Below, piece by piece: positions 1 to 20,520 of a stretch of 64,000 bases of DNA (its first letter is position 1; the number at the start of each line of letters is the position of its first letter). The position numbers and the translations under genes were made by a program. Origin of the DNA: Naegleria gruberi. Its lineage: Eukaryota. Location of the stretch: NCBI GenBank assembly GCA_000004985.1, contig GG738847.1, one strand, 5' to 3'. The notes below the pieces were generated by a model that had not been told where the DNA came from, ran no database searches, and saw nothing but the letters and a program-made list of their open reading frames with translations.

Positions 1-206
1 TTGTTGCTCAACCAGTTGCTGCTACTGTTGGAGGAAATGGTTTCTATGAACCAACTGGAAATGAACCAGTCAGTCAACCAGGTGTTAGTACTTTGCCATA
101 TCCACCAACTAATGATTTCAATCCTTATCAACCATTCAATCCTAATGCTAATTACAATCCAAATGCAGACAATAATCAATATATTTCTTATGGACCTACT
201 AATTAA
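1..206 (+). CDS. 3' end of a gene that starts upstream of the window; N/P/Q-rich C-terminal tail (...NPYQPFNPNANYNPNADNNQYISYGPTN*)
   Basis: Frame 3 (codons from nt 3) is open to the left edge and ends at TAA 204-206. It uses yeast-preferred codons (GTT GCT CAA CCA ACT GGT). The frame-1 ORF 1..270 in the track translates to low-complexity junk. No family identified. Confidence 0.4.
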   Translation, partial: VAQPVAATVGGNGFYEPTGNEPVSQPGVSTLPYPPTNDFNPYQPFNPNANYNPNADNNQYISYGPTN

Positions 207-493
207 CAAGTTATCAAATAGGAATTTATACAACTCAACTTTAGAAACTAGGTTTTTATCTATTGGTTAAACGGCCAATTGAATATCATCAAATTACAAT
301 ATTACTGGTAATTAAAAATAAATTAAATCTCTCAAATTATCTAAATATCATCTGATTCATACTAAAATCAAGAGATTTCTAAAATAGTCGTTTGTTCAAG
401 TCAACTTTTACATTGGGTGTACTGATGAACTTGCAACTTTAGTTGTACGAATTATCAAAAAGTATAATATTAAAGTTCACAAATCAAAAAAAA

Positions 494-1666
494 ATGTCAC
501 CTCCTATAGTCGTGATTGACTGTGGATCAACAATGTGCAAGGCAGGTTTTGCCGGAGAAGAAGCACCTATATCAACATTCCCTTCCGTTGTTGAATATCG
601 AAAGACGAAATCAATCATGCTCAACCAAAGGGAGAGAGTTGGGGATAGAGTATTCTCCCAGATTGGTGTAACTTGGGCCAAGCTTCCCATCGAACGTGGC
701 ACAATTGTGGATTGGGATGGCATGGAGAAGGTGTGGTATTACACATTTCATGATGAATTGAGAGTTGATCCTGAGAGCAATGGTGTGCTATTGACAGAGA
801 GTGTGTTGAATGACGATACAGCTCGTGAAAAGACAACACAGATCATGTTTGAAAAGTTTAATGTGCCCTCGTTGAATCTTGAAAATCAGGCAGTCTTGTC
901 ATTGGTTGCTTGTGATTGCCAAACTGGTGTTGTGTTGGAGAGTGGAGGTGGAATTACACAATCTGTTCCAATTTATGAAGGACGTGCCATTAAAGATGCA
1001 GTTTCTAGATTGGAATTGGGTGGAGAGGATTTGTCTGATTTGTTACATCAGATTCTAAACGAAAAGGGTAAAGTGACAAGGTATTTTGAAGAGATGTACT
1101 ATGGGGCAGAAACTAGAAGTGGACGTTGTATTTTGGAGAGTAATGGTAAGAAGGTAAATACGAATGAGAGACAGATGTCTGCAGAAATTAAGAAAAGTTG
1201 TTACGTTGCTTTGGATTTTGAAGAGGAGCTTAAACAATTCGATTCGAAAGATTATGAATTACCAGATGGAAACATGATCACGATTGAAAGTGAAAGATTC
1301 AGATGTCCAGAAGTATTGTTTCATCCAGAATCAATAGGAATGGATGTTGGTGGAATTCATGAAATGATATTCAACTCAATTGGAATGTGTAACCTTGAAT
1401 TAAGACCAGATCTTTTCAACAATGTTGTGCTTAGTGGTGGAAATACCATGTTTGAAGGTATTGGAAAAAGATTGCAAAAGGAATTATGTAGTTTAGCCCC
1501 TGTTTCCATGAATATCAAGGTTACTGCCCCACCAGAAAGACATTGCCTCAGTTGGATTGGTGGTTCAATAATGATGGCATCTTCTGCAAGCCAACAGCAG
1601 AATTTTATTTCAAAGCAAGAGTATGACGATATTGGTGCATCAATTGTTCACAGAAATTATTGTTGA
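494..1666 (+). CDS. ARP1: actin-related protein, Arp1/centractin-like
   Basis: The 390-aa product aligns along its full length with actin/centractin: VVIDCGS...KAGFAGEEAP, DWDGMEKVWYYTF, TQIMFEKFNVP, SGGGITQSVPIYEG, LSWIGGSIMMAS..QQ..ISKQEYDD..SIVHR. ATG at 494 (MSPPIVVID) is the likely start; the track ORF begins at a TTG at 443. Confidence 0.75.
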   Translation: MSPPIVVIDCGSTMCKAGFAGEEAPISTFPSVVEYRKTKSIMLNQRERVGDRVFSQIGVTWAKLPIERGTIVDWDGMEKVWYYTFHDELRVDPESNGVLLTESVLNDDTAREKTTQIMFEKFNVPSLNLENQAVLSLVACDCQTGVVLESGGGITQSVPIYEGRAIKDAVSRLELGGEDLSDLLHQILNEKGKVTRYFEEMYYGAETRSGRCILESNGKKVNTNERQMSAEIKKSCYVALDFEEELKQFDSKDYELPDGNMITIESERFRCPEVLFHPESIGMDVGGIHEMIFNSIGMCNLELRPDLFNNVVLSGGNTMFEGIGKRLQKELCSLAPVSMNIKVTAPPERHCLSWIGGSIMMASSASQQQNFISKQEYDDIGASIVHRNYC

Positions 1667-1838
1667 ACCAAATGAAAAAGAATACATGTAATACATTCAT
1701 TGCCACAATTTGTGATATTTTCATTAGCCGATTTACTATTCAATATATTAATCAATCAAAATGTAATTAAGGATTTTTTATATTAAGCACTCAATAACCC
1801 GAGATTTAAAAAGGCAGCATCTTGGAACTCTATTAAAA

Positions 1839-2396
1839 TTGTCGGTTGGAATTGAACGCAAGTTCCTTAACAAAAACAAAATGCCAACACATTCAACAAG
1901 CAATCAACACAATAACGCTCAAAAAAGCAATCAGTATCTTCATTCTCATCACGAATTAACCAAAGCCGACTCTAAAAGTTCAGATCTATCCAATGTCACT
2001 GTAGAAGTTATTGGTACGCATAAGGATATTCAATTGGATGATGATTCATTGGAGATTAAGGGAAATTTAAAGATTAAGAGAATTACACAGTCGATTGTCG
2101 AGTGGGATATTCCAATCTATGATGATATTATTATTGAGAGAATATACGGAGAGGGGAAATTGTATTATCATGATGATTATCAGACTAGTCATCATCATCA
2201 ACACGTACAAAATCCTCAACTCTTGAAACATCAACAATTAATTTATGATAGTCGTTCCTCTGATAGAATTCTATGCTCCAATACAAAATATATTCGCTTA
2301 CATAGTGGTCATGCCTATCTGTTCAAACTTGCAAAATATGAAGACTCGGATGAAATTGTGGTGCATTATAGAAATAAGTACTCTTTGGATCTGTAG
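1839..2396 (+). CDS. hypothetical protein (185 aa; alternative start at MPTHST, nt 1881)
   Basis: Intact ORF with yeast-like codon usage, His/Gln-rich. No family recognised. Confidence 0.4.
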   Translation: MSVGIERKFLNKNKMPTHSTSNQHNNAQKSNQYLHSHHELTKADSKSSDLSNVTVEVIGTHKDIQLDDDSLEIKGNLKIKRITQSIVEWDIPIYDDIIIERIYGEGKLYYHDDYQTSHHHQHVQNPQLLKHQQLIYDSRSSDRILCSNTKYIRLHSGHAYLFKLAKYEDSDEIVVHYRNKYSLDL

Positions 2397-2559
2397 CTTA
2401 ATTCTTTTTAACAAACAGCTATACTTCTTTAACATCAATATATTAGCTTAATCATTACCATCACCACTCTCCAACAACAATTCTCCACCAAATAAAAATT
2501 AAAGCCCAAATGAAATTATTCCGGTAATGATTGGCCTTTTTCGAGAATGAATATTCGCG

Positions 2560-4260
2560 ATGAATCTCCAATACAAAAAAAATATCTGTTATCCTCACAG
2601 CACAGGAGAGATGGTCAATGAAAAACAAACGGATAATCATCACGATTCCGAAAAAGATCACAAGCTTATTTATCAGCACCATCATCACGTAGCATTTAAT
2701 ATTAATCCTCCTACTGAAGATGAGAAGAATAATCAAGCCAATTCCACTACAATAGATGATCATTCATCAGAGAATAATTTATTACCCAAGATGTTATTAT
2801 TGCAACACAATCATCATCATCTTCACCATCACTTGGAAGAACACATGAGCACTGATGCTACTGATGTTACCTCTACTGATGATTTCACAGAGAGTACTGT
2901 CAATGGACATTCTCATGATGAGAGTGCTCAAGATGTTGCCATGCACAGGATTGAACAAGTTGCTGAACGTTTTGCAAATGTCACAAAAAAGAAGAGTAAG
3001 AAGGCTCTTAAATTACTGACAGAGAGTCCTTTCAATATTTTCAAAGAGATTATGGATGAAGAGGAGGAACAATCCTCTGGTGAGGAAGATTTGGAAAATA
3101 ACATACCAAAAACTGTTTCTCACTCGAGAACACAATCCATAGAATCACTTCCAAAAGAAGAAATAATTGAGGAAAATGGTGTAACAATTAATCAAACTAT
3201 TCCGAATGCTGTTGGTGACAGCAAGGAACAAAACCCTGAATCGAAGGCATTGGATGAATCCACTCACTTGGTTCAAGACACTGAATTCACTCCAAAGAAT
3301 ATTTATAATCAAGAAGATACAGGAAAGCCAATCAAATTCCACACCCACTTTTGTCTGTGCTCTTTTGATGAGACTCCTGATTTTTTGAGAAACAATCCAT
3401 TCATTAGAAATCACTATAGAAAATACTTTTCTTTCAAATTATGTCTCCAAAGTATCTTTAGATTACACAATGAAACTGTCAATATCTGGACACACATGCT
3501 TCCAATATTTGGATACGTTGCTCTCATATTCTATACCATTTACTTTATGGTTGCAGAGCATAATACTGGCTCATTCAGTGCACAAAACGTTTTGGACATG
3601 ATCATTGTTATCATTTATCTTGGATTTGCAATTAATTGCTTTTTCTGTTCATCAATGTATCACACCCTTAACTGTCACTCAAAGAAAATTTGGGGTATTT
3701 CGTACAGATGTGATGTGAGTGCCATTTCTGGACTTATTGGAAGTAGCATCATTCCAGCTCTGTACTTTAACTTGTATTGTTATGTTGGTTGGCAAATAGT
3801 TTACATTTCATCAATTGGTTTGTTTGCAGTTGTTGGAATGATTTTCCCATGCCTGCCATTCAAGAGTCCGCGTGCTCTCAAAATTTTTGGTATTGTGAGA
3901 ACTGTTTTATTCATTTCTATGGTTTTGAGTGCTATTATTCCAATTTCACACTTTTTACTTTTCATTCTTCCATTGAAACAAGAGTATACAGGTAGTTTCT
4001 ATTCGGATTACAATCAAGATTTCATGATTGGAATTATCATTGTGGTTTCATTGTATGGTCTTGGATTAGTTTTCTGGCTCACCAAATTCCCTGAAAGAGC
4101 CTTCCCTGGCAAATTTGACTTGTTCTTTTCATCACACAATATTTGGCATGCTTTCATTGTTGCTGCCAGCTCCTTATGGTATTATTATTGTCTGACTCTG
4201 TATGTTGTCAAGGTTGAAAAACTGAAACTTGGCCTCTCTTGTCCAAGTGATGCATTTTAA
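2560..4260 (+). CDS. PAQR/haemolysin-III family 7-TM protein with long His-rich N-terminal extension (Izh3-like)
   Basis: The C-terminal half carries PAQR signature motifs (HNETVNIWTHMLP; SSMYHTLNCHS; SSHNIWHAFIVAAS) and about 7 hydrophobic helices. The roughly 300-aa N-terminal extension with HHHH runs resembles S. cerevisiae Izh3 architecture. Confidence 0.75.
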   Translation: MNLQYKKNICYPHSTGEMVNEKQTDNHHDSEKDHKLIYQHHHHVAFNINPPTEDEKNNQANSTTIDDHSSENNLLPKMLLLQHNHHHLHHHLEEHMSTDATDVTSTDDFTESTVNGHSHDESAQDVAMHRIEQVAERFANVTKKKSKKALKLLTESPFNIFKEIMDEEEEQSSGEEDLENNIPKTVSHSRTQSIESLPKEEIIEENGVTINQTIPNAVGDSKEQNPESKALDESTHLVQDTEFTPKNIYNQEDTGKPIKFHTHFCLCSFDETPDFLRNNPFIRNHYRKYFSFKLCLQSIFRLHNETVNIWTHMLPIFGYVALIFYTIYFMVAEHNTGSFSAQNVLDMIIVIIYLGFAINCFFCSSMYHTLNCHSKKIWGISYRCDVSAISGLIGSSIIPALYFNLYCYVGWQIVYISSIGLFAVVGMIFPCLPFKSPRALKIFGIVRTVLFISMVLSAIIPISHFLLFILPLKQEYTGSFYSDYNQDFMIGIIIVVSLYGLGLVFWLTKFPERAFPGKFDLFFSSHNIWHAFIVAASSLWYYYCLTLYVVKVEKLKLGLSCPSDAF

Positions 4261-4308
4261 TAAGGCAAAAAGAAATACTAACGAACTAATGTAAATAGTT
4301 AAAATAAT

Positions 4309-7300
4309 TTATTGTGAATATTTTTCAATAGCCAAATTTTGTACAAGTGAACCAAGTTCAAAGACTGATTTGATTGCTATCAGTTCATCCTTTGGTTGAA
4401 CAAAAAGAGTATTAGCATCTCTTCCATTCTTTGAAAATGCTTCATCCAGTGAGTGATTCACAAATGGTGTGCATTTAGAAGTGAGAAGAGAATGTCTGCA
4501 TAAAACAAAGAGAGCTTTTCTAGCTGCAGACAAGGCAACAGATAATCTGTGAGGATCATTCAAGTGACCAGGATGGGTAGTTCTAACAGTTGAAAGAATG
4601 ACAATGTCATTAACTTGACCTTGATATCTATCAATGGTTGTTACCACTGGATAACCCAAAGATTCACATCTTTGTTTGAGAATATCCCTAATGAGAGTCT
4701 TCTGACCTTGGTATGAAGCAAGAATGGTAATAGAGTCAGAGGAGTGACCAATTAGACGCAAATACATGTACAGTGCTACAGCATATTCAGCCTCTCCTTG
4801 ATTTTGGTACATGTGAGAGGAGAGCAATGTTTCACCTCTTCCATTCAAATCTTCCACATTTACAAGTTGATAATTAAATTTGAATCCTTTCAATTTCTCT
4901 TCAGAATATGTTACATGATCATAAGTGTTTGGATAATTCCATTTGAATAGAGGTAGTAAGGATGAAGAAATTTGAGTTGAATCGAAAGGAAGTTTGATAA
5001 TATTCTCCTCATCAATGAATCTTCCAAAACGAGCAAATAAAGATTGACTCAAGTTGGAGAATGGCTCTATTTGTTTGTTATATACCACAGGTTTCATTTG
5101 ATTTAAATCTCCAATCAAGATTATTTTCTTAATTCTCTTAGATACTGTCATTGGGATGAAAGATTCAATTTCTGAAATTCTGCCAGCATCTTCAATGATT
5201 AATGTGTCAAAATTAAAATTGAGTTCTTGGAATTCCTTTCTCTTTACAGCCGCATGAGTGGAAGTCATGGCAACTACTCTTGATTGTTGAGTAAGAACGT
5301 GGTTACATCTCGATTGGTAGGCTCTGATATTCTCCAATACCTTACATTCGTTGATGAGTTCGAATAATAATTTCAATTCGGAATATAATTCGTGAGCCAT
5401 GTCTAAATTTTCATTAAATGACTCAGACGAGAACAAATGCTCTTCATTCATAACTTCTCTAAAGTAATTTTGGAATGGGAAGTTGGTCTCAAAGAATGAA
5501 AGACTTTCATTTTCCAATTCCTTATCCTTTGAACCACACAACTCCAGGAATGACTTCCAAAGAGAGTGAATATTACCAATAAAGAAATGAGAAGCTGTTT
5601 CACATGAAATATTAGTGAATTGAGGATAGCCAAGAGAAGTAGCCAACTGTTCTAGAGTTTTCAAAACTTCAATTCTTTTTTGAATGAGGTAATTGACTCT
5701 ACCGAATTTGCTATACTCATTCTTTTCACCGCCTAGTCTAAGTAAATGTCTTTCGTGTACTTTAGAATTCTCTAATTGTTCAAATACGCTATTCAAAGCT
5801 AAATTTGACCTAGCAATAATCACTGTTCTTTGATTTGGATTTGTAACATAAATATTCTCAATAATCTTTGTTAAAACGTTATGCTTTCCGCACCCTGGAG
5901 GAGCTTGAATATAGGTGAGTCCCTTTTCTGGGCTGGTTGCTGATCGAATGGCTCTTATTTGCTCCTTACTGAATCTATAACCAGTATCGGTTGCATTAGG
6001 TGATTTCAACTCTCTAGGAATGTATGATGAGTAGGCTGTAACATTCTTCTCCAAACCAAAGGTAACAGTGAAGTAATTAGAATTGGTTGGACTAGAAGCT
6101 TTCAAATTGCTTGGAACATCTAGAGATTCCCTAATATGGTCTTCATCTTGGAAAGAATTTCTAAAATCAACTGTACTCTCAGAAGAATCGAAAGAAGGTT
6201 CATAACCAAGAATATAATCTGATAACCAACTAACAAGGTTGTTTGTTCCATTATTCATTAAATTTCTCATGCTTTCGAGAACAGCTTTGAAATTATTATC
6301 TTTTGGTTTCTGTCTTACTACCAAGTTAAAGTGAGAATAAATGTCTACTCGTGACTTTTCTTGTTCCTTTCTATCAGCAAGATATTGAATCGGATCCAAT
6401 AAGACAACCAATCTACGTTCTGGTGTTGAAAGCTCAAATTCAAGGGTTTCGTCTTGCTCGGCAACCTTTGTTTGGTTGTTAATGACATTTCCATCCGCAT
6501 CCTCTTGCCTCAACAACTCACATCCTCTAATAGAGACAATGCCAAACTTTTCATCGAATTTGGCATTTTCATTGCTGTGCATTTTGGCCTTAATTTGAAC
6601 TAGGAAAAGAATATCATTCTTTCTAATATTTTCCCATTCCTCACGAATACTTTGTGATTCAATAGAGGAAAGATTAATCGTAATGGCTCCTTCAACCTTG
6701 GATGGTGAGGTTTCTCCGATACTTGGGGGAGCAACCTCAACAAGTTCAAAAGGAGAAGTCATCGGAAGGGCCATTCTAAATCCAGAATGAAATTGTGTCT
6801 TGCCAGTTGCAGGATTCTTAGAGTATTCCAAATTAGAAATAGTATTTTCAAGAGATTGTCTCAAGCTGTATGTCTTTTCAAGTTTGAAAAGCTCATAATT
6901 TCTGAGCAAATAGTCAAACAAGGAGAGATATTGAATTCCAAGTTTTGGAATAATATTTGGTAATCCTTTGTAAGCTAAATTGGTTTGAATAGATTCATCG
7001 GTAAGACCTTCAGCCCAAATGGTCTTTTCTGTTGGATAAAGAGAAGTGGTATTGATCTTTTCTATTGGGGATGGTTTTCTTTCGTGATTGGATACTATTA
7101 ATTCAATGAGAAGCTCCTCAGAAAAATCCTCTCCAGTTTCATACTTTCCCACTAAATCTAAATGTCTACACAAATCTACTAGCTCTTCCTTTTTAATTGA
7201 AGCGAGGATCTTTTCGAGGTAATCCCTAGATTGAACTGTAGCAACTGTCTGGACGGAAAGATCCTTTAAACTTTCAGTAAAATGTTGGAATGATATTAAT

Positions 7301-8417
7301 TGCAAATTTGCAACCTTTTCAGCATAAATACCTGCATATTCTGTTGCTGACAAGACTTCTCCTGTATCGTCATTAATATCGAAATGTAAATAGAACTCGT
7401 ATTTCTCTACCAAATCAAAAAACTTTGAAGACTGTGCGCCTGTTCTTAAAAACAATCTACAATGCTCCAAAACATGAGCATCTAACAAGTATAGACGTGA
7501 AAATTTTCTTGTTGGTATTTGAGAAAGTAAATCTATTAAAAATTCTAAAAATCTTTCACAGTATGTCATTAATTCATTATTATCACCTTCTACCAAACTC
7601 TTGAGAGATTCTAAAAAGTGAGTGACAAGAGATGGAACAAAGTTTGACTTGGAATCAGAATTGTTTTTCTTTGCAGAAAATTTTTTCCAATATTTTGTTA
7701 ATCCTCTCTTTGCTATTTCATTGTTTCTTCTAGAAGGATTAACATGAGTCCACAAAGGTAGTGACACATAATCCAAACACAATCTATTTATCAAATCAAT
7801 ATGAGAGAAACAATTAATCAGAAATACGATTAATATCAGTCTTTCCTTTGTATTCCTATATTCCAAATTAATTGCCAAATTATGTAATTGTTCGAATTTA
7901 CTATCAGTAGCAATATCCTTGAAATTAGTTTGATGACATTTTTCATTAATCATTACTATTAAAGATAATATAAATTCTCTAGAGTTTTTTCCATTATCAA
8001 AATTATTCCACAATACACTATTCATGTGTTAATCAATTCATTTCCTAAGAAAACTTACTGTTCAAAATAATTCGATGAAAATAATTGTGCAAATACTCCG
8101 CTAGATTCATTCAACAAATCCATACAAATAACATCAAATACTTGATTAATTAATTGTTCATCAAGAGCAATACACTTTTCCCATCGGGTTGATAAAACTC
8201 TAATTTGTTCATCATTGGCTTGATCCACCTTCATTTTCTTACTAGAGGCCTCTGAAGATCCTTCTTCCACAGTTGTTTGTTGATGATCATCACCATTCAT
8301 ACCATCACCATTATCAGGTAACACATTTTCCTCTGGATTTTTTCTCTTCATTTTTTTAATGCTGGAAAACAAGGTAAGAATAATGTGCTTGCTTGAAGGT
8401 GAATTGTTTTTCTTCAT
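4309..8417 (-). CDS. AQR: intron-binding protein Aquarius / Cwf11-family SF1-helicase-like spliceosomal protein; two exons (8417..8059 and 8017..4309), about 1355 aa
   Basis: The 1238-aa ORF aligns with human AQR (YCERFLEFLIDLL..PTRKF; LGIQYLSLFDYLLRNYELFKLEKTYSLRQSLEN vs [33 protein letters not shown]; Walker A region APPGCGKHNVLTKIIENIY vs GPPGTGKTDVAVQIISNIY). The upstream 120-aa ORF (8055..8417) supplies the conserved N-terminus (QLFSSNYFE / HVLWNNF vs human LEFSQYLENYLWMNY) once a 41-nt GTAAGT...AG intron is removed in frame. Confidence 0.8.
8018..8058 (-). other. spliceosomal intron (41 nt) of the Aquarius-like gene
   Basis: Minus-sense GTAAGTTTTCTTAGGAAATGAATTGATTAACACATGAATAG. The 5' site is GTAAGT, GATTAAC is the branch-like element, and the 3' site is AG. 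The splice joins CA|T into a His codon, restoring one frame and a conserved alignment. Confidence 0.65.
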
Positions 8418-8552
8418 GTATTATCATCATTAGTGTTTATTATTATTTACAATTTTAATTATTATTATTATTCTAATAGGTTGAGAGGAAGTAAAACCAC
8501 ACGTTTTTCTTCTTCATAATAAATTATATAATGGCCATCATCCTGGTGTGAA

Positions 8553-9371
8553 TTAATCATCTAATCCCATCTTATCCAGCAAGGCATCCAAGTCTGGTGT
8601 TGGGGAGAGTAGGCAATTGTCAGCATTTCCATTGTTGTTATTACGTTTCAATGGTGAAGTAAAACATGAGAAATCATCTTCATCAGAGGAATTTGTTGTT
8701 CTCTTCTCAACAACCTTTTCAGCATCCAATTTAACAGATAAACTATTGTTGGAGGCTCCTAGTACGGTGGATGCTACTGAATTCCACATGACATTATCAG
8801 AGGAGGTCCTTTCTGCCAATTCATCATACTGGTGCTTGAGTTTGTTGTATCTTTCCTTGGCAAACATCTTTTGTTCATGCATTTCTCTCACCTTCTCTTC
8901 TAATTGTTTAATGTATTCATCTTTGAGGTCATTGTCTCTTTGCAAGTCTTTAATTCTTTCCTTTTGTTGAAAGAGGAGGAGGGAAATGTCCTTGACAGCG
9001 TTGGCAGAGGTGTTTGAAGATGATTCTGGTGACAAATCTTGCAAATGCATGGTATGCTCAACTTGGTATGGAGAGGAAATTTCATGTTGTTTTGGTGTGG
9101 TTGTTTCAGGTGTTGGAGGTGAGTCTGGAATGTGAGGTTTAGTAGTGATAGAATACCATGAAAACCAGTTCAACCACGAATTGGATCTATTGTGTCTAGT
9201 TGGTGTTTCCTTCTTTGGAGTTACTTGTTCTTCAGATTCTGTTTCACTATCTGAATCATCGGAAGGAGCCAATAATTGAAGACGTTTCTGAAGGAGAGTA
9301 GAGTTTGAAACAACGTTATTCTTGTTGGATTCCTCTTCGGCAAGAGTTTTAACTGATTGGACAAGTGACAT
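8553..9371 (-). CDS. hypothetical Ser/Thr/Pro-rich protein with central coiled-coil segment
   Basis: 272-aa ORF with a heptad-like KDLQRDNDLKDEYIKQLEEKVREMHEQKMFAKERYNKLKHQYDELAER region. No family recognised. Confidence 0.45.
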   Translation of the reverse strand: MSLVQSVKTLAEEESNKNNVVSNSTLLQKRLQLLAPSDDSDSETESEEQVTPKKETPTRHNRSNSWLNWFSWYSITTKPHIPDSPPTPETTTPKQHEISSPYQVEHTMHLQDLSPESSSNTSANAVKDISLLLFQQKERIKDLQRDNDLKDEYIKQLEEKVREMHEQKMFAKERYNKLKHQYDELAERTSSDNVMWNSVASTVLGASNNSLSVKLDAEKVVEKRTTNSSDEDDFSCFTSPLKRNNNNGNADNCLLSPTPDLDALLDKMGLDD

Positions 9372-9437
9372 TTTTTTTAAATTTTAAATGTAACGGTAAG
9401 TTTATCAACTTTTGGTGGTTAAATTGCATTCCATGAA

Positions 9438-10367
9438 TTACTCCACAGATACATCAGAAAATACTGGTCCATCTGAATCATCGTCTCCACTGTAGTAATC
9501 GGAATTTCTTCTCATTATCTCAGCAAAATCTTGTAATCCCATTCTTCCTCCAGCAGATGCGTTCATTCTACCCAAATTCATGAATGGATTATTTGCAGCG
9601 TTTCCTCCCATAAAACTATTCATGAAAATGCTTGGGTCAATATTTGGTTGAGCTCCATTTGAGCCAGGCGTTCCAGAAGCTTGATTGAACATTGAATCAA
9701 ATGAAAAGAATGAAGAGAAATAACCAGACAATCCTAAATTCCAAGAACGGTCAATAGCAGTAAAAACTCCTTTCACAATTGTCCAATAGTCTTGAATTGA
9801 GGAGAATGGACCTCCAGGATTACTCGATTCCACATCAGATAATCCATGTTTACAATCTCTAAATACACGAATAATAATGAGTGTCACCAATAAATAATAA
9901 AACAAATTTTCAAAAAGAGTAGTCAATCCCAAATGCTTTCCTGTTGAAATAAAGTCATAAATGAAAAAGTATTCAAAAGGAACAATACTCAAAAGGAATG
10001 GGAATGAAAAGGATGTTGTGAAATAATTCTTCATCCACAATGCGAAATATCCCAAAGTAAAAACATTAAACCAATCCAACATTGAGTAGGGTTTTGCGTA
10101 ATCCTCCATTGTTAGCTGCAAACTATGTTCTGGCATTCTAACTAAATTATCAAAAAAGGGTTTGTGCACAAGATGAATTCTTCGGAACAGAGTTGTATCA
10201 TCACCGAATTCTTCTCCCAAGTAATCATGATTTTTAAACCATCCCAAGTAGATACTCGATATTAACAAGGCTGCACACACTCGAATTATACTACTCTTTC
10301 TAGATAACATTGAATTTACATTATTCACAGCAGAGAGTACTGAAAATACTCGATTGATTGTTGCCAT
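9438..10367 (-). CDS. hypothetical multi-pass membrane protein with Gly/Asn/Met-rich acidic C-terminal tail
   Basis: 309-aa ORF with several hydrophobic helices (LLISSIYLGWF; FTLGYFALWM; FPFLLSIVPFEYFFIYDFI; LFYYLLVTLIIIRVF). Family not recognised. Confidence 0.5.
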   Translation of the reverse strand: MATINRVFSVLSAVNNVNSMLSRKSSIIRVCAALLISSIYLGWFKNHDYLGEEFGDDTTLFRRIHLVHKPFFDNLVRMPEHSLQLTMEDYAKPYSMLDWFNVFTLGYFALWMKNYFTTSFSFPFLLSIVPFEYFFIYDFISTGKHLGLTTLFENLFYYLLVTLIIIRVFRDCKHGLSDVESSNPGGPFSSIQDYWTIVKGVFTAIDRSWNLGLSGYFSSFFSFDSMFNQASGTPGSNGAQPNIDPSIFMNSFMGGNAANNPFMNLGRMNASAGGRMGLQDFAEIMRRNSDYYSGDDDSDGPVFSDVSVE

Positions 10368-10663
10368 TAATTTTGATGAGAATTATTCCAAAATTATTGA
10401 TGAATAGAGAGTGGATGACGATATTTTTTATGAGAGTTCTTTTGTATGGAAAGAATCTTTCCTTTACAATTATTTTGCAACAATGATATCTTACTACACA
10501 AAGAATAATGAAATTTCACAATAATGATCTAATTGTCATTGTTGTTTTTGAAAATGTTTAAAATATCACCTTCACAGTTGAAGTACTCAACTTGAAATTG
10601 GCGCAAAGATTACTGTAAAAAACTAGCGGTTTCTCATTTTACATTAATAAAAAACTGAAAAAA

Positions 10664-13569
10664 ATGAGCCTTAATAATTTTGATGAGGCTTTACTTTCCT
10701 CCTCCGAAGAGGAAAGAATGTTGATGGAGAATGGAGAGGATGATTTAGATGTTCCAAAGGAATTATCGATCGATAATATCAGAGGGATGAAAGCTAGTAT
10801 TGAGAAGAATGTTAAAGACCTTGAGGAAGCTCTTGCGGAAGTAACCACATCAAACGAAGAACCAAATCATGAATTGATCAACGAGTTGAATTTAGCCTTA
10901 GTGCAAAGTAACTTGCTCCTGGAAAAAATAGTAATCATTGAAGATGGATACAAAAAGGCTATCAAAACCGATACTCTTCTCTCACAGGAAATAACTGATC
11001 TTGCCGAACAACTAGGCTTTATTGTACCTCTACACTTAACAAAGACAATAGAAGAAATTTCGGAAAGCGTATCACCCAATACACATCTCAACAATGAAGA
11101 AGAAGAAAATGGCTTAGAAGTTAGGGAGGGTGATTACAAGTTTGTTTCATTCGATGAGTTGGAGAAGTATTTGAACGAGCCGTTACTGCCAGAAGATAGG
11201 AATCAAACTCCAAAAGATAACACTCCCCAAAGGGCAGCAGTTTCAAGTACTTCCACACCAAGTACCAATATAGTCCCAATGCAATCACCAAAAATCACTA
11301 AATCATCACCACCACAATCTTCACAACATTCACCAGCAGATTCTTTAGAAGGTGAACCTGTAACACCAATTACATCAAGAGAAAAGGAATTAAGAAAGGA
11401 ATATTTGAAGAACAGTATTAATATGAGTAAGGTTTCCTTCTCCTCCCCAACCTCAACAGCATCAATCTTTTCCACACCAGCTGTTGAGAGGAGTGACAGG
11501 AAAAATTTAGAGGGAGATGAGTATATTGAGATTACACCAATTGTGGAGGAGGAAAATCCAACTCTAACTGAGGAACAGCAACAATTGATTGAAGAACAGG
11601 ATGTTAACAACCTGTTGGAGCAACTAATGATTTACACAAACGGATTGGATGAAGCAAAGAACTCACCTCGAAATAGACCACTTGGTGATTTGATAAAGGA
11701 TATCAAGGAAGAAGAAGGCACTCCTCAGGAGAACATCTCTTCTCCTAGCATCTTTTTGAGACAAGAAGGAAATGCATCCCCTCATTACACTAGAATTACA
11801 CCTAGAGAAACACCAAGAGAACTCCCAAAAGAAATACAAAGAGAACTTCAAAAGGAAGTTGTCAGAGAAATACCAAGAGAAACTCAAAGAGTGGTCGAGA
11901 GTCCACCTAAACTTTCTGCAACCAATTTGGAAAACGAATTCATGAAGAGAGATTTGGAAGATGCAAAGAGTCAAATAAGCGTATTGAAACAGCAAGTTGA
12001 ATTCCTTCAATCCAAGGTGGCTTCAACGGAAGCTGAAAATTCGGATCTTAAAATGACAATTGAAACTCTATACGAAGCAAAGAATCAGTTCGATGCTGAT
12101 ATGCAATCTATCAAAGAAAAAGAGTAAGTTTATCTGGGTTTACAGTTCACTAACTTTTTCATTTCAAAAGAGAAAAGATTAATTTAATTGCCTCTTCTTT
12201 AGGAGACCATATTGAATTTTTGCAAGGAATGGTTGATAAACTGAAAAATGAAAGAGACAATAAGGTAATCAAACAATCAGAACAATTAACAACCATAATA
12301 GAAACACTCATAAGAAAAGAAAACACTCTTCTCGAAACAGTAGTAAACCAAATGGAAAGTGAAATGAATAATAGAAAAGTAGTGTTGGACGAAGAAATGT
12401 TAAAACTTAAAAAGATTGTTGTTGAGTGTCTGGGCGATGAAGACGAAAGTTCTTCCAAAGAAATTAGCAATGAAACTCTTCATGCTCTTCAATCTGAACT
12501 TCAGACAGTTGCTGATGAACTGAGTGAAATCAACTACTTCCCTTCTGACCCTGATGATGATATCGATAATGCTGTGACCAGAACTTTGGAGTCTCTCGAG
12601 TGCCCTGTAACAATAGAGATTGAAAGAATTGGGTATGGAGAATATTACCTTGACAGAAAATTGTATATCAAACTTGGACCTAAGGGAGAACCTCTTGTAA
12701 AGAATGGAAATGGTTTTATCACATTAACATCGTACGTGAAGAGATTGTATGCTCCTTTCTTCACAACTGAAAAGTATATCAAAGAAGAAGAGCAATTAGA
12801 AATAGAGTCACAAGCTCTTCAATCATCCAAATTTGAATCTCTTCTCCAAAAACTTTCCAAGACCAGGGATTACATTAATAACTTACAAACAACCTCAAGA
12901 TCTGGATCTAACTCACCTCCAGCTTCACCTCCAAGAAGATCATCCCCTCTCAGAAACAATACTACTCTAAATCTTTCTCAATTAAATAACAGCAATGAGA
13001 GCCCTAAAGACTCCTCTTCAAAACTCAGCCCAAGAGATGGACCAAAGTTGATTCAAAAGAAAGAGAGGCAAGAGGATGACAACAAGGAAGGAAGACCAAG
13101 CTCTGCTCCTCCAAATACTAGGTACATTAATATTCTCCAAAGAGCAGAAAAGAATAAGAAGCTTTTGCCAATCAAGCCAACCCCACAAGTAAGAAGACCA
13201 CCTCCAAACAGCATGACCTTTGATAGAAGAAATAGTCCACTTCCACCAAATTATGTCATGCATAACAACAACCTCCTTTTTGTAAAACAACCAGCAACCT
13301 ATGAAAAACAACTCTCAAACTATGAGCAAGTTTTGGCTGCTCACCAATCTGTCAAGAAACCAATTGTTCCTCAAAAGTCTGCCTCAACAAATAACAGTAG
13401 AGCATCTTCACCAAGAAATCATCCATCACAGCAGCAACAACAGCCACAAACCATCAAGTCAACAATGTTTGGTTCTATTGATTTGGGTGATCCAAAGCAA
13501 TTGGAAAAATTGAAGAAACAAGCCCTAAGAATGCAAATCCAACAATTTAGTCAAAAACCAATTCATTAA
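10664..13569 (+). CDS. large coiled-coil / Ser-Pro-rich protein; two exons (10664..12123 and 12171..13569), about 950 aa
   Basis: ORFs 10664..12127 and 12220..13569 join in frame after removal of a 47-nt GTAAGT...CACTAAC...AG intron; the second ORF's frame is already open from 12154. The product has coiled-coil N-terminal and central regions, PRE(T/L)P(K/R)E-type short repeats and an S/P/N-rich C-terminus. Confidence 0.6.
12124..12170 (+). other. spliceosomal intron (47 nt)
   Basis: GTAAGTTTATCTGGGTTTACAGTTCACTAACTTTTTCATTTCAAAAG. The 5' site GTAAGT is at 12124, the branch-like CACTAAC at 12148-12154 and the 3' AG at 12169-12170. Exon 1 ends in phase 2 (GA) and exon 2 supplies A, giving GAA, then continues in the frame of the downstream ORF. 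Confidence 0.65.
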
Positions 13570-13576
13570 AATTCAT

Positions 13577-14076
13577 TTATTTCATATGTTCATCCATCAA
13601 TTGTCTAATGTCCTTCAATTCATTATGTAAAATTCTAAACTTGTCAGCAGACATTTCAAATCTTTCGTGAGTTGTAATTGATCCATCCTCTTCAGAGTGA
13701 AGAATTTTCAAGTTGAGTTGAACTGTTGGTTCATTCATTGTTTTTAAGGTTGATGATGATAAGACTAAATCTACTCTCCATTTTAATTCCTCAATTTTAG
13801 GCACTGTTAATATTTGGTAAGTTGCATGATAAAATCCAACCACTTACATCTCAAAGTTTTAGTTTTAAAATGCTGTATCAGTTTTTCCTTATAATTTTTA
13901 TATGATCTACACAAAGATTCACTGCTTTCTTTTGGTAAACCGATTTGTTGCAATTCGAGTGACAATTGTTGTTCTTCAACATTGAATCTGGCAGAATTAG
14001 AAATAATATATAAAATAGAAGCAATAGCACTCTTGACTTCCTTAATATCTTTACAAGATCCTTCAGTTCTCTTCAA
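13577..14076 (-). CDS. COMM domain-containing protein; two exons (14076..13848 and 13803..13577), about 151 aa
   Basis: The C-terminal ORF encodes a COMM-domain-like sequence (EELKWRVDLVLSSSTLKTMNEPTVQLNLKIL....FEMSADKFRILHNELKDIRQLMDE). The two overlapping minus-strand ORFs are joined by a 44-nt GTAAGT...TATTAACAG intron; the junction codon is T|TG = Leu. Confidence 0.6.
13804..13847 (-). other. spliceosomal intron (44 nt) of the COMM-domain gene
   Basis: Minus-sense GTAAGTGGTTGGATTTTATCATGCAACTTACCAAATATTAACAG. The splice is phase 1 and puts the conserved W-R-V-D COMM motif in frame. Confidence 0.6.
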
Positions 14077-14672
14077 TGCTTTATCATACTATTCCACAAT
14101 CAACAAAATAATTTCGGAAATTAATACATACATCAAATTCTTCTGATTCAATAATTTCCTTCATTACAGCAATTGATAAGAATTTCAATTGAACTGATGA
14201 CTAATAAAAATCCAATTTAATATTCCAATTTAACTGTAAAAACCTACAATATTTGCTAAAATAGCCATATTGGCCAAAAGCCAATCAGGGGCATCCAAAC
14301 CTCCACAAAAGTGAAATCTCTAAGATCGGAATTAATTCTCTCATCAATATTATTTCCAAAGATCAAAACATACCATCCTTCTTTAAATAATTTAATATGG
14401 TACACAAAAGATTTTTTCAACTATCCACACAGTGATGATGGCAAGATTTTAAATCTATTCGTTTTTTTTAAAAAAGAATTATTGAATTTTTAATAATATT
14501 CATAAAATATGAATCATAGCCAAGATACAAGTCAATCCATCGGATCTGATGACAATTACACTATTCACCATCATGGTGGTCATTAACTCTTTCCTATCAT
14601 CACATCATTAGCTATTTCTTAGTTGAAGCACAAAATTTGAAATTTATTGCTTTAAAAAAATATTTTAGAAAA

Positions 14673-15470
14673 ATGTTGCGTGCTGCTCTCACTTCTTCAA
14701 CAAAGGCCCGTCTTTGTTCAAAGAATGTTATTCATTCCTCTCAATTAGTATCATCATCAATTTCCTATACATTCATGAAGAGTTCTAATAACTCTCTTTT
14801 GCTCACGCTGCCATCTAAACAAATAAGGTTCTACGCCGAAGCACAAAGAGAAAAATCACCAAAGAGTAAACATGGAAAGGAATCAAGCTTTAAACGTTTG
14901 TGTAAGTATTAAAATTGTAGCGGAATATGTGATTGTAACAATTTTACCTTCATCACACACATTGGAATTGTCAAAATTATTTCAAATTAATTTTCATACT
15001 ATTATTTACTATCTTTAACAACAACAGCCCACGAGGAATGTGTTCAAGTTTATGACTTTTGGAAGAGCCAAGGAAAACAAATTAATTTTACATTCTATAG
15101 ACAATTCTTGCAACATTGTAATACACTCTGTTGGGACCACCCACAATATGTTGAAAAGGCCCTCTCAATTGCTGAAGACATGAAAAAGGACGGTATTGCT
15201 TGGAATCTTGAAGTTTACTTTATTTTGATCCAATGTTGCATCCGTAGTAAATCACCACAAAATTTAGACAAGGCTTTTGCTCTCCAATCTGAAATGGAAA
15301 AGTCTGGTATTCAATCAACTCAACTTATCTACAATTCACTCATTCGTGGTTGTGCTCTTTTGGATCAAGTGGAAAGAGCCAAGCCAGTTTTTACTGAAAT
15401 GATGAAGTTAAAGGATATTCCACAAGGAATCAAATTTGATGATGTCTATAAGCATCTTAAGGAATTGTAA
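14673..15470 (+). CDS. small mitochondrial PPR-repeat protein; two exons (14673..14901 and 15028..15470), about 223 aa
   Basis: Exon 1 begins with a presequence-like MLRAALTSSTKARLCSK. Exon 2 carries PPR-like 35-aa repeats (QLIYNSLIRGCALLDQVERAKPVFTEM). A 126-nt intron (GTAAGT at 14902, CAG at 15025-15027) joins the ORFs in frame, with junction codon T|CC = Ser. Confidence 0.55.
14902..15027 (+). other. spliceosomal intron (126 nt)
   Basis: Starts GTAAGTATTAAAATTG and ends ..TTTACTATCTTTAACAACAACAG, with a TTTAAC branch-like element. The intron is phase 1 and the downstream frame is open from 15030. Confidence 0.55.
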
Positions 15471-15723
15471 ATTGGAATATTTGACAACCAGTATAACTCC
15501 TACTCTAAATTTTTCAAACTAGAAAATGATAAAAAAACTTTATTTAAATTCAATTTATTGGCTATTATCAATTCTTCCCTTAATTGTTGGAAATTTAAAA
15601 TAAAATTCAATCAATTTTAGTAATTTTTAACCTCTCACTTTAGAAAGTCGTTTTTTTATGTTTATTTATTCAAATTGAAAATTAGGTAACAAATCCTCCT
15701 CGAAATATTTAATTTTCTAATAA

Positions 15724-16233
15724 TTATATGTTTTGCGATGATGCAAGTTTAGAAGTTTCTTCGTTCAAAATACTTTGGATGAGCAATTCATCTTCATGAA
15801 CGTTATTGCTCATTATCGTTTGAGATGTAATAGTCTTAGATTCGAGTGTAGCATTATTTTGTGGTGTAAGAAGCATATCTTCTCCTTGGTACATATCCTC
15901 ATGAATTGTTTGTTCTTCGTAAACTTGTCTGAATTGATCCTTTTGTTTGTAGCAAGCCCAACGGAATATTTGTTGGTCCTTTCTCATTTGTTCATTGAGT
16001 TCTTTAACACAAGTTGGTGAGGCATCGAACAACATCATGACCCATCTTCCCTTGAAATGTTTTTCTCTGTGTCTATACATCGGATAGGCAAGAGGTAAAA
16101 TACCCATATTATCAAGACGACGGATTACTCCCTTATTTTCAAAAACAACTTGAGCATTTCTCTTCATGACTTGGGCGACTGTTGGTAGAGCAGCCTTTGG
16201 ATTCACGAGGTACACCAATTCGTACAATGGCAT
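15724..16233 (-). CDS. MRP17: mitochondrial ribosomal protein bS6m (Mrp17-like)
   Basis: The N-terminus (MPLYELVYLVNP...) and central block (EKHFKGRWVMMLFDASP) resemble the bS6/Mrp17 family (yeast MLYELIGLV... HFRAYHFLMLFDSS). Confidence 0.6.
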   Translation of the reverse strand: MPLYELVYLVNPKAALPTVAQVMKRNAQVVFENKGVIRRLDNMGILPLAYPMYRHREKHFKGRWVMMLFDASPTCVKELNEQMRKDQQIFRWACYKQKDQFRQVYEEQTIHEDMYQGEDMLLTPQNNATLESKTITSQTIMSNNVHEDELLIQSILNEETSKLASSQNI

Positions 16234-16456
16234 GATGTTGTTGGTGATGATGATGAAATATTTTTTTGAATTTAGAAAATAAATAAAAATAAATCATTTT
16301 AAATTAAATTTCAGGCTTCTCTAATAACCTTTCAAATATTAGAAATGAATGACCAAGAAGATGACTGTTTACTTGTTGAAATGAAGTACTTAACATGCTT
16401 ACCGCGGACGAGGATATAAATATTTAAGTAAGTTATTTTAGAAATCTTAATGTAAA

Positions 16457-16527
16457 TCGGGTGTGGTATAGTGGTAGCATTCCAGACTGTCACTCTGGCG
16501 ACCCGGGTTCAATTCCCGGCACTCGAG
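16457..16527 (+). tRNA. tRNA-Asp (anticodon GTC)
   Basis: Folds as a cloverleaf. Acceptor TCGGGTG/CACTCGA with U1:A72 and a G4:U wobble, anticodon stem CCAGA/TCTGG, loop CTGTCAC (U33, GTC, A37) and T-arm CCGGGTTCAATTCCCGG. Discriminator is G73 and CCA is not encoded. U1:A72 and G73 match known yeast tRNA-Asp features. Confidence 0.85.
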
Positions 16528-16532
16528 TAGAA

Positions 16533-16538
16533 TTTTTT
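16533..16538 (+). terminator. RNA polymerase III terminator (T6) 5 nt downstream of tRNA-Asp
   Basis: TTTTTT run immediately after the tRNA 3' end. Confidence 0.5.
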
Positions 16539-16743
16539 GTTAAACAATTCAATTATCATTATCATATTACTGGTTTTCATAATTTTGTAATAAACACTAG
16601 TTTATAGATATTTGTGTTTTTATTTTTGATTAAAATTGAGTATTACCTTTTTTAGAAGCCTCTGATTTCTCATGCCAAATGTTGCTCAATAAAAAATATG
16701 TGGTACTGAAAAAGTTTAGCACTGTTTTATAATTTTATTAAAT

Positions 16744-17982
16744 TTACAACAAGTTACAAATAATCAAGGAAATCAAAACAAGCAAGAAGCTAATCAATGA
16801 TTGAGAGCTAGCACCGCTAGTGGCAGCCAAATAATTTGAATTTTCACTAGAACCACTTGAAGGATCCCAAATTACATTTTCAACTCTTTCAGTCAATGAA
16901 ACCCAGAAACGAGCAACAACAGCATTGGAAGCTTCAGACTTATCCTTGATAAATTGTTCATCAGAATTCAAACTACCTTCAATATTTCTGAATGGAGTGT
17001 AAATTAACTTGCCACGAGTAACAACAGTTGGTGAACTAGAAGAATATTTGGAAATAAACTTTTGGAAACTGAAGAATGGTTTTGGAAGAATTGCTTGATT
17101 GCCATCTAATTGAGTATTCAAATCATTATCAAATTGAGAAACAGCTTGATCATCATTGGCATCATCTGGCTTTTCAACAGCTGATGATTCTCTTGTTCCA
17201 GAGCTTGGCTTTAAGGTTTCATTTTCACCTGATGATTTTTCACGTCTTGAACCACGGAATGCAACAATTGTACCCAAAGCAATCAATGAATTAGATTGAG
17301 AATATTGAATATTAGCCAATTCGAAAGAAACCTTCAATGAGGATGGATTCAATACTTGAACAACACCAGCACGAGAGGCAAACTTTGAGCTATCAATTTG
17401 AACAGTGGCAGTTGAAATGACAGCACTCATTCTAACAGTACAGAAATTGGTAATATTAGTTTCAACCAAAGCATGATAAATATATGAATTATCACTGTCG
17501 TTGAGAAGCTTCTTTGATAAATCAACAATCTTCCATGTTTGTTCACGTAAATTGTAAATCTTTACAACAGTGTCATTACCTGGTTGATAACCTTCAACTC
17601 CACTTGTCTCTTGATATTCAATAATTCTATCGACACCAAATGCAGATCCAACTACAATGGCCAACTCACGTTCAATCTTGGTAATTGGTGTGACAATCTT
17701 GATAGCAGTCTTGGCCTTCATGGCAATGAGTGGAAATCTTTCGAGTGAGGCCAGAAATTCCATCTCTGAGAAGGAACCAACAGCAGTGGCATTGAGTCTG
17801 TCCAATGTACACAAGGCCTTGCTGGTAAACTTGATGGTCTTTTCGTTTCTGTCGACTTCAATCTTTCTACGGCAGAATTTGTTGGTTGGGAAGAGTTTTG
17901 GTGTAATGTCGAAGGAGGTTGATTGAGCTGAGAGGAGAGTGGCCAAACAGCTGAGAATTACAATGAGGAATAAGAGTTTCAT
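16744..17982 (-). CDS. GPI-anchored secreted / cell-surface protein
   Basis: N-terminal signal peptide (MKLLFLIVILSCLATLLSAQS), a Ser/Asn-rich body with many N-X-S/T sites, and a C-terminal omega-like region (ATSGASSQS) followed by a hydrophobic tail (LISFLLVLISLIICNLL). Confidence 0.6.
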   Translation of the reverse strand: MKLLFLIVILSCLATLLSAQSTSFDITPKLFPTNKFCRRKIEVDRNEKTIKFTSKALCTLDRLNATAVGSFSEMEFLASLERFPLIAMKAKTAIKIVTPITKIERELAIVVGSAFGVDRIIEYQETSGVEGYQPGNDTVVKIYNLREQTWKIVDLSKKLLNDSDNSYIYHALVETNITNFCTVRMSAVISTATVQIDSSKFASRAGVVQVLNPSSLKVSFELANIQYSQSNSLIALGTIVAFRGSRREKSSGENETLKPSSGTRESSAVEKPDDANDDQAVSQFDNDLNTQLDGNQAILPKPFFSFQKFISKYSSSSPTVVTRGKLIYTPFRNIEGSLNSDEQFIKDKSEASNAVVARFWVSLTERVENVIWDPSSGSSENSNYLAATSGASSQSLISFLLVLISLIICNLL

Positions 17983-18249
17983 ATTGTTTTTTTTTGTTGT
18001 GGAATATTTGTTGTATTGCTGAACATTTTAAAGGATTGTAATGGAGGGCACCTGTCGTTTGTCAATGAGTGAGTTCATGTCATGAACAAGTTGGTTGTTC
18101 TGCAACGATGAACTGCATTGTTGAAACTGGAAGTTAGAATATTCAACACTTAGAGTTCGTGGAAGGAAGAAAGAGTTCACAAGTTTGTTATTTACAATGA
18201 TTACTGTAGTTGATTGACAGGTGTATTAATTTCTTTTGCTTTCTGAATC

Positions 18250-19269
18250 TTAGCACAACATGCATTTTTCCTTTTTGTTTAGAACTGGAGCTTTGATAAG
18301 TTTCGAATAGATAAACGTCTTGACAATCAAATCTTCCAATTCTTCCAGTCCAACAAACTCTCTTGAAGATGTTGTCACATAGCTCACAGCACCCATCCGC
18401 TGAGATAGTTTCTTTCCATACGAATCATACTTTTTACACAAATAACTATTCCAATATTTTCCCAAATGAAAATCTCCTGGTTTTGAATAATCACAAATAT
18501 CAGATTTTGTTCCAACGACCAATACTGATCTGTTGTAATCCAAAAATGGTTGAATTTCTGGAAGAAATCTATCAGAAAAATCCTTCAAACACTTATTCAT
18601 CATTACTGGATTTGATATTGAATAGCACATTATAAAAATGTGACACTTGGATGGTGTATCATAAGAATAAGGAGTGTCTACTAATTGTAAACAATAACCT
18701 TCAATCCTCTTAATATCACACGAATTATAGTAACGGGGAACAGAAAAACCCTCTTCCGAATCATTGTATCTTTCATACCTAAGGTGAAGATAGTAACACA
18801 GAGTGGTCTTTCCAATACCATGTGGCCCAATGAAGCAACATCGAATTGGCTCTGATTCTTTCAGTAAATTTGCATATTCCTCCAATTTGAAATTCTCACA
18901 AAATGTCTCAAAGTTTTCAATTTCTTCCGAATATGAACTCCAAGTGTTTTTGAGTTTTTTAATTTTCTTACATTCTTTCAATTTATATGTTCGATCGACC
19001 GATTCCTTGGTTTCTCTATAAATTTTCATTAGAATTTCTCTAATATTCGTACTTTCTGCACGGAGTTTAATGGGTTCTTCTCTATTGAGCAACTTGCCAT
19101 GAATCGAAAGTTGACAGTCGAGTTGTGTTATTCTTCCTCGCCACATCCAATCACTATTTAAAAGATTGAACCAAATGGTATTGACCAACATAAGTTGGAG
19201 ATGTTCGGAAAATGAAAGAAATTTATCAACGATCGTGATGGTATCCAGTGGCAAGAGATTTAATGACAT
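18250..19269 (-). CDS. F-box-like N-terminal domain fused to a divergent Rho-family (pseudo)GTPase domain, polybasic-CMLC C-terminus
   Basis: The N-terminus LNLLPLDTITIVDKFLSFSEHLQLMLVNTIWFNLL fits the F-box consensus (LPxEIL..I...L....L.....V.K.W..L). Residues 140 onward align with Rho: P-loop GPHGIGKTT; effector FSVPRYYNS; Rho-type IFIMCYSISNPVMMNKCL..F...LPEIQPF; VLVVGTKSDI. Switch II is DTPYSYD instead of DTAGQE (A59P, G60Y, Q61S) and NKxD is TKSD. Ends KKEKCMLC. Confidence 0.6.
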   Translation of the reverse strand: MSLNLLPLDTITIVDKFLSFSEHLQLMLVNTIWFNLLNSDWMWRGRITQLDCQLSIHGKLLNREEPIKLRAESTNIREILMKIYRETKESVDRTYKLKECKKIKKLKNTWSSYSEEIENFETFCENFKLEEYANLLKESEPIRCCFIGPHGIGKTTLCYYLHLRYERYNDSEEGFSVPRYYNSCDIKRIEGYCLQLVDTPYSYDTPSKCHIFIMCYSISNPVMMNKCLKDFSDRFLPEIQPFLDYNRSVLVVGTKSDICDYSKPGDFHLGKYWNSYLCKKYDSYGKKLSQRMGAVSYVTTSSREFVGLEELEDLIVKTFIYSKLIKAPVLNKKEKCMLC

Positions 19270-19302
19270 TTTTTGATATTATTGAAGAAAATAAAGATGG
19301 TT

Positions 19303-19345
19303 AAAAAACAGTCCGATGAGACGGAATCGAACCGCCGACCACAGG
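19303..19345 (-). pseudogene. tRNA 3'-half fragment (T-arm plus 3' acceptor strand) followed by a T-run; no matching 5' half
   Basis: Minus-sense ...GGTCGGCGGTTCGATTCCGTCTCATCGGACTGTTTTTT. A canonical T-arm (GGCGG/TTCGATT/CCGTC), a 7-nt 3' acceptor strand and a T6 terminator are present. No complementary 5' acceptor strand, D-arm or anticodon stem lies within 100 nt upstream, and a 50-N gap starts about 125 bp away. Confidence 0.35.
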
Positions 19346-19471
19346 ATGACAGTTGTTCTTGCTACAGTCCACTTTTATTGTCAAGAAATCTGTAGGTAGA
19401 GAAGGAAGCCAGGTAAAAAAATAATGAAATGGAATAACAAGAACCCTTCAAAATATGCAACAAACACAATA

Positions 19472-19521
19472 NNNNNNNNNNNNNNNNNNNNNNNNNNNNN
19501 NNNNNNNNNNNNNNNNNNNNN
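19472..19521. other. assembly gap (50 N)
   Basis: Run of N. Confidence 1.
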
Positions 19522-19662
19522 GACAGTAAAATCCTGTACATTACAATGAAAAATAATTAACTTCTGACCCCTCTTCATTGTTCCTTGAAATTCAACTTGA
19601 TATTGAACTTTAACACTTGACAATATCAACTTCCAACTTCCCAAGCAAGCTCTACAAAAAAA

Positions 19663-20265: not shown

Positions 20266-20410
20266 GATTACTATTTTTAAATACTATTTCGAATCTTACT
20301 AATTAAGAGCTAAAAATTTACTTCTTGAATGCGTCGACCGGGAATTGAAATTTCCTTTTTTGGAATTCATTTAACTTTTAATTTTATGATGAAATTATGA
20401 ATGTTTTATT

Positions 20411-20500
20411 TTAATATTATTCATGATGTGAAACATCATGTTGAATTCTGTTCATAATATTTAATTCATGATGTGAAACATCATGTTGAATTATTAACAA
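20411..20500. repeat. tandem duplication of an approximately 45-bp unit, each copy with a 7-bp-stem hairpin (CATGATG-TGAAA-CATCATG)
   Basis: attcatgatgtgaaacatcatgttgaatt occurs at 20419-20447 and again at 20464-20492 with similar flanks (taatatt...). Confidence 0.7.
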
Positions 20501-20520
20501 ATGTTGTTCTTCAATTTTTA

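Follow-up and report, generated by a model that had tools for sequence, protein, structure and literature searches.

Aquarius proteins and the Naegleria gruberi gene

Human Aquarius (AQR) contacts the intron upstream of the branch point. Human AQR/IBP160 (4PJ3; 5MQF, chain U) and Schizosaccharomyces pombe Cwf11 (3JB9, chain X) have a common domain order, consisting of the Aquarius N-terminal domain, a beta-barrel and an SF1 helicase core, and we found the same order in a protein encoded on the minus strand of a 64,000-nt stretch of DNA from Naegleria gruberi NEG-M (the window). PF16399 and PF21143 (Aquarius N-terminal domain and beta-barrel) scored 221.4 bits (cut-off 26.6) and 136.4 bits (cut-off 21.5). 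The Pfam matches comprise Aquarius_N_1st, Aquarius_N_2nd, AAA_11 (82.3 bits) and AAA_12 (80.8 bits), while Aquarius_N_3rd had no Pfam match at E<=0.01. The helicase region aligned with residues 784-1294 of human AQR at E=1.5e-111 and with Cwf11 at 4.4e-52, the N-terminal region with human AQR at E=5.9e-46. The protein thus carries the N-terminal domain and beta-barrel of the Aquarius family as well as its C-terminal SF1 (Upf1-like) helicase core, and the Pfam matches and human AQR alignments bear out an earlier note on this DNA, which had taken the fused product for an Aquarius orthologue.

The N. gruberi protein differs from its described relatives in other respects as well. Its first ~60 residues are not alignable with human AQR or Cwf11, and its Walker A motif reads APPGCGKH (5904..5881, minus strand), compared with GPPGTGKT in human AQR and TPPSCGKY in Naegleria lovaniensis. 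The N. gruberi motif departs from the canonical GxxxxGK[T/S] in that other residues stand in place of the first Gly and the Thr, the Lys being retained. Read from the sequence, this deviation is a matter of predicted catalytic activity and not of family membership by homology; the substitutions raise the question of ATPase activity in Naegleria Aquarius.

The coding sequence, join(8351..8059, 8017..4309) on the minus strand, specifies 1333 aa. The coding part of exon 1 (8059..8351, minus strand) begins with the ATG at 8351..8349 and comprises 97 codons plus the CA of a split His codon, its last full codon being the invariant Glu of a YLE-x-x-LW motif. Exon 2 (4309..8017, minus strand) holds the rest of the aquarius coding sequence including the stop (4309..4311). 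Read from its second ATG (8351, M23), where the RefSeq protein also starts, the spliced product is letter-identical to EFC49677.1 / XP_002682421.1 / D2V097 (D2V097_NAEGR), whose name in the first two records is "intron-binding protein aquarius". An exact look-up of the unspliced 1238-aa ORF, in contrast, returned no record. Neighbouring ORFs of the window correspond to D2V098, D2V099, D2V0A0 and D2V0A2-A5, which are consecutive N. gruberi entries from one and the same scaffold of 941,567 bp.

The intron between the two exons is therefore not new, since the peptide NYFEHVLWNN can be obtained from this DNA only by a GT-AG splice that removes 8058..8018. We deduce the public splice from this exact protein identity and not from annotated exon coordinates. 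The intron has been part of the public N. gruberi annotation since 2010, and its description as unannotated in the earlier note does not hold. As XP_002682421.1 is a gene prediction of 2010, the identity proves that the intron was already annotated, not that it is spliced.

The sole difference from the public model D2V097 concerns the start codon, because the earlier note had begun the frame at an upstream in-frame ATG (8417..8415) that is unused there. This ATG and its 22 codons (8352..8417, minus strand) are probably 5' UTR. A second N. gruberi strain, represented by the ENA metagenome contig ERR1078381 k127_83487 (L002, 6980 nt), is ~99.7% identical to the window, with 22 mismatches and 4 indels over ~6.9 kb. 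All four indels relative to NEG-M (about 8369, 8515, 8539 and 10433) lie outside coding sequence, and the one at ~8369 is a 4-nt insertion between ATG 8417 and ATG 8351. This insertion puts ATG 8417 out of frame, which points to ATG 8351 as the likely coding start. The beginning of the N. lovaniensis protein, MPPKRKN, resembles the N. gruberi MKRKNPEE by eye, upstream of residue 44, at which the BLASTP alignment begins.

The coding part of exon 1 and the 41-nt intron are unchanged in the second strain, and an assembly error at the intron is thereby excluded. The gene calls on this contig were made in prokaryote style and consist of a 98-aa ORF (exon 1 plus Gln and a stop) and a partial ORF of 892 aa. 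They are a real case of the "spurious small gene" that the earlier note had predicted from intron-blind annotation. Its expectation of a truncated protein beside such a gene was thus correct, while the loss of about 120 conserved N-terminal residues that it foresaw was overestimated, as the coding part of exon 1 has 97 codons.

The probable 41-nt intron and its splice junction

The segment between the two exons is very probably a GT-AG spliceosomal intron of phase 2 (8018..8058, minus strand), running from GTAAGT to AATAG, and the earlier note had placed it accurately to the base. In the minus-strand reading, TCA TCG AAT TAT TTT GAA CA is followed by GTAAGTTTTCTTAGGAAATGAATTGATTAACACATGAATAG and then by T GTA TTG TGG AAT AAT TTT. 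Excision of 8058..8018 joins SSNYFE to HVLWNNF in frame, with the split codon CA/T coding for His, and leaves an open frame of 1355 codons when counted from the first ATG (8417). The length of 41 nt leaves a remainder of 2 on division by three, and retention leads at once to an in-frame TAA that is made by the donor itself (CAG TAA). The unspliced upstream frame is the mechanical 120-aa ORF (8055..8417), and the mechanical 1238-aa ORF opens with an ATG (8023..8025, minus strand) that lies inside the intron and is not a real start. GC content is 27% in the intron and 33-34% in the exons.

The splice signals are the 5' splice site GTAAGT (8053..8058, minus strand), the 3' splice site AATAG (8018..8022, minus strand; terminal AG 8019..8018) and a candidate branch-point element of the yTnAy type, GATTAAC (8028..8034, minus strand). 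The earlier note had seen this GATTAAC but set it 10 nt from the AG; its candidate branch A, 8029, lies 29 nt past the first intron base, at a distance of 11 nt from the 3' end. A yTnAy scan of the 41 nt returned this TTAAC and also TTGAT, with its A 15 nt from that end. The hexamer GTAAGT is not enriched in the window, where 11 copies occur on both strands against 8.4 +/- 3.1 expected. What goes beyond chance is that the donor stands exactly at the end of the ORF, that the frame is restored, and that the conserved pattern S-x-Y-x-E / x-x-L-W is regained without a gap.

Several properties of a U2-type intron are found together here: the 5' GT lies within the U1-complementary consensus (GTAAGT/GTATGT), the 3' end is AG, the frame is continuous with a product collinear with its homologues, and position and phase are shared with the orthologue of N. 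lovaniensis. We put the probability that 8058..8018 is a real, constitutively removed U2-type (GT-AG) intron of N. gruberi aquarius at about 0.93. We infer from sequence that the intron is spliced in vivo, which A serves as branch point and where translation starts. U1 would base-pair with the GTAAGT donor, the branch A would most likely be the one in TTAAC (8029), 11 nt upstream of the AATAG acceptor, and the first AG past the branch-like element (8018) would be taken as acceptor. Splicing would then create the CA/T His codon within the conserved YLE-x-x-LW motif of the Aquarius N-terminal domain, and removal of the intron would yield the full-length Aquarius protein of 1333 aa.

Homology to Aquarius proteins of other eukaryotes runs through this junction. 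Pfam Aquarius_N_1st matches residues 109-434 of the spliced product over profile positions 44-392 (221.4 bits), compared with positions 55-392 and 213.8 bits for the 1238-aa ORF alone. The phmmer alignments with human AQR (5mqf_U, 4pj3_A) begin at residues 112-113 and cross the junction at residue 120, and that with the Caenorhabditis elegans protein (8ro0_Q) begins at residue 85 and spans the same point. When the N-termini of ten AQR sequences were aligned, only two columns were invariant, and one of them is the Glu of the last exon-1 codon; the third and fourth residues of exon 2, Leu and Trp, are nearly invariant, and the junction is free of indels. The alignment of the spliced product to AQR/Cwf11 orthologues, which the earlier note had proposed as a check, therefore passes the junction without interruption, and the segment behaves as a canonical GT-AG intron, in agreement with the note, with the frame restored and homology gapless.

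Exon 1 itself gives a fainter signal. The similarity of KKMKVDQANDEQIRVLSTRWEKC to the AQR N-terminus, also put forward in the earlier note, is visible in the multiple alignment, where IRVLSTRW falls under ITQVAAEYW and LDEQLINQVF under FDANVVAEIY, but it is not statistically significant on its own. Exon 1 alone returned no AQR match at E<=10 in a phmmer search of the PDB, which yielded nothing but chance matches to an unrelated protein of Plasmodium (E about 0.8). A comparison by hhalign of a profile from the two Naegleria exon-1 peptides with other AQR N-termini was likewise not significant (E=0.023, probability 2%); its alignment covers 33 columns in the expected register, with both sides ending at the invariant Glu. 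The conserved part of exon 1 amounts to about the last 75 of its 97 codons, and this conservation is with N. lovaniensis only. No transcript-derived protein spanning the junction was among the relatives returned by the protein search. The spliced junction 25-mer had no matches in JGI metagenome contigs, a count that is uninformative on splicing.

The closest protein in the database is N. lovaniensis C9374_006069 (P0001; locus L001, 6001..9523), with 56% identity; a BLASTP alignment of the two proteins (48% identity overall) is continuous from residue 44 through the junction. Its gene model is 58 nt longer than its coding sequence, and the sole single GT-AG removal that gives the N. lovaniensis protein is that of a 58-nt intron, GTATGT...TTTCAG (L001, 6336..6393). 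Like the N. gruberi intron, this annotated intron is of phase 2 and splits the codon after the homologous Glu (KLIE/N FVFKY). It is 58 nt long instead of 41, its branch candidate is a CTCAC at 16 nt from the 3' end, and it shows no sequence similarity to the N. gruberi intron beyond the splice signals. In both species the length is not a multiple of three and retention would lead to early stops. An ancient, widely shared intron position was considered and rejected, as the motif is uninterrupted in three further eukaryotic AQR loci, all from metagenomes. The position is accordingly common within Naegleria and not universal.

At its other end, the N. lovaniensis aquarius gene (PYSW02000026.1) is annotated as two genes, one of 1154 aa and one of 183 aa. 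A one-base change of frame falls within CCTGAATTTATGATCATGTG (L001, about 9500..9525), near the C-terminus, and past the shift the other frame reads YDHVIPTETKLNGFRFNYQ, which matches the N. gruberi YDHVTYSEEKLKGFKFNYQ. This break probably reflects either a 1-nt indel of the assembly or a frameshift that is real.

If there were no intron at 8058..8018, the same DNA would hold two genes, an ORF of 98 or 120 aa and a 1238-aa Aquarius starting at ATG 8025. Both ORFs are indeed open and each has an ATG, and the prokaryote-style caller produced exactly such a pair on the ENA contig. Two genes would, however, separate the invariant Glu, left in the small ORF, from the LW of the large ORF, although homology to human, nematode and other AQR proteins spans the junction. 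They would also turn a perfect GTAAGT donor into the TAA stop of the small ORF, and they disregard the annotated intron of N. lovaniensis at the same codon and phase. We therefore consider this arrangement highly improbable. The donor might instead be joined to another acceptor, for example by removal of 8058..7979 (80 nt) or in a longer in-frame option, or it might be spliced alternatively. In-frame YAG trinucleotides for such events exist at 7979, 7901, 7856 and 7784, but each would cost at least 13 residues, among them the nearly invariant L-W and, in the FILSLIVMINEK block, a conserved stretch with an alignment to human AQR. The AATAG at 8018 is the sole acceptor that preserves the conserved E-x-x-L-W spacing; it is the first AG downstream of the branch-like element and the one used in the RefSeq product, so that another acceptor appears extremely improbable.

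A third alternative is partial retention of the intron as a regulatory device, in which the TAA right at the donor would be a premature stop that could tune the output of Aquarius, itself a spliceosome component. Among eukaryotes other than animals, and also in N. gruberi, intron retention is reported to be the dominant form of alternative splicing (PMC6142364); PRJEB23822 is an N. gruberi RNA-seq project (PMC6142364). No observation particular to 8058..8018 counts against retention. The splice signals of this intron are strong, though, it resembles the neighbouring short introns, and apart from the splice signals it has no sequence conservation with its N. lovaniensis counterpart; we consider partial retention extremely improbable.

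Short introns and neighbouring gene models

Introns in N. gruberi have a median length near 60 bp. Their mean length is 203 bp, with 1.7 exons per gene, and a minimum intron length of 30 bp has been used for read mapping in Naegleria fowleri (PMC8296547). The earlier note had called the aquarius intron unusually short, a view that its surroundings contradict. A COMMD4-like gene (13577..14376, minus strand) contains four short, homology-supported introns 6 kb from the aquarius intron: a 54-nt intron directly after the ATG (14373..14320), followed by introns of 47 nt (14247..14201), 43 nt (14131..14089) and 44 nt (13847..13804), the last with a GTAAGT donor. A further intron of 47 nt lies 4 kb away. 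The reconstructed 203-aa COMMD4-like protein shows the expected succession of HN and COMM domains and aligns end-to-end with human COMMD4 (8f2r_D; query 1-199, chain 1-196, E=1.4e-43). Neither the full model nor one with an alternative start had an exact match in the public protein collection, which means that the public model, if any, differs.

The window's other short introns (43-54 nt) have a GTAAGT or GTATGT donor, an AT-rich body and a YAG or AAG acceptor. GTAAGT also opens the 126-nt intron of D2V0A2 and the 47-nt intron at 12124. In the aquarius intron as well as the other short introns, the A of yTnAy lies 11-17 nt from the 3' end. Its distance from the 5' end is ~30-32 nt in the aquarius intron, in COMMD4-like introns 3 and 4 and in the 47-nt intron at 12124, and 42 nt in the 54-nt intron. 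The aquarius intron is the shortest of this set by 2 nt, and it belongs to the normal short class in N. gruberi.

The 47-nt intron (12124..12170, plus strand; GTAAGT...TTCACTAAC...AAAAG, phase 2) is absent from public gene models. At this position, GTAAGTTTATCTGGGTTTACAGTTCACTAACTTTTTCATTTCAAAAG overlaps the stop of XP_002682235.1 (D2V099, 487 aa, 10664..12127), and its excision extends the frame into XP_002682236.1 (D2V0A0, 405 aa, 12352..13569, ATG 12352). An intron missing from the public models thus probably separates NAEGRDRAFT_62218 (D2V099) from NAEGRDRAFT_62219 (D2V0A0), and its removal would fuse both into a protein of 952 aa. The fused product corresponds to a single 848-aa protein of N. 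fowleri, FDP41_003061, with 43% identity over 97% of its length and an alignment that is gapless over the junction. The 60 codons at 12172..12351, outside both RefSeq coding sequences, are highly conserved with FDP41_003061, and the annotation of the N. fowleri gene includes a 50-nt intron that agrees with it in codon and phase.

The opposite error may be present in XP_002682422.1 (558 aa), which joins two complete ORFs, 9438..10367 and 8553..9371, via a predicted 138-nt intron (9353..9490, minus strand). This intron has a weak donor, GTGGAG, its length is divisible by 3, and the 40 nt before its 3' end contain no yTnAy motif. A separate ATG opens the second ORF, in an aaaaaaaATG context that resembles the aquarius start, and XP_002682422.1 may be an over-fusion of two genes. 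Scaffold gaps account for 39,880 of the 64,000 positions of the window (N at 19472..19521 and 20807..60636), and the real sequence of ~24 kb comprises 1..19471, 19522..20806 and 60637..64000. The "13307 aa" ORF at 20797..60720 and other gap-spanning mechanical ORFs are artefacts.

Implications for Naegleria annotation and Aquarius function

The aquarius intron is an ordinary and already known result, which matters as quality control only. Applied to the neighbourhood, the same logic yielded 12124..12170, a short intron that the public models do lack. Our results show that introns of 41-54 nt are normal in the N. gruberi genome and should not be scored as unusual.

A more far-reaching reading would connect the intron, or the protein, to the function of Aquarius itself. 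Retention could be regulated, with Aquarius feeding back on its own mRNA via the TAA, or the Naegleria protein could act as a scaffold only, without ATPase activity. We regard this reading as very unlikely. If the scaffold-only version were true, it would fit the many introns of 41-54 nt, which have no room for a contact of the human AQR type upstream of the branch point.
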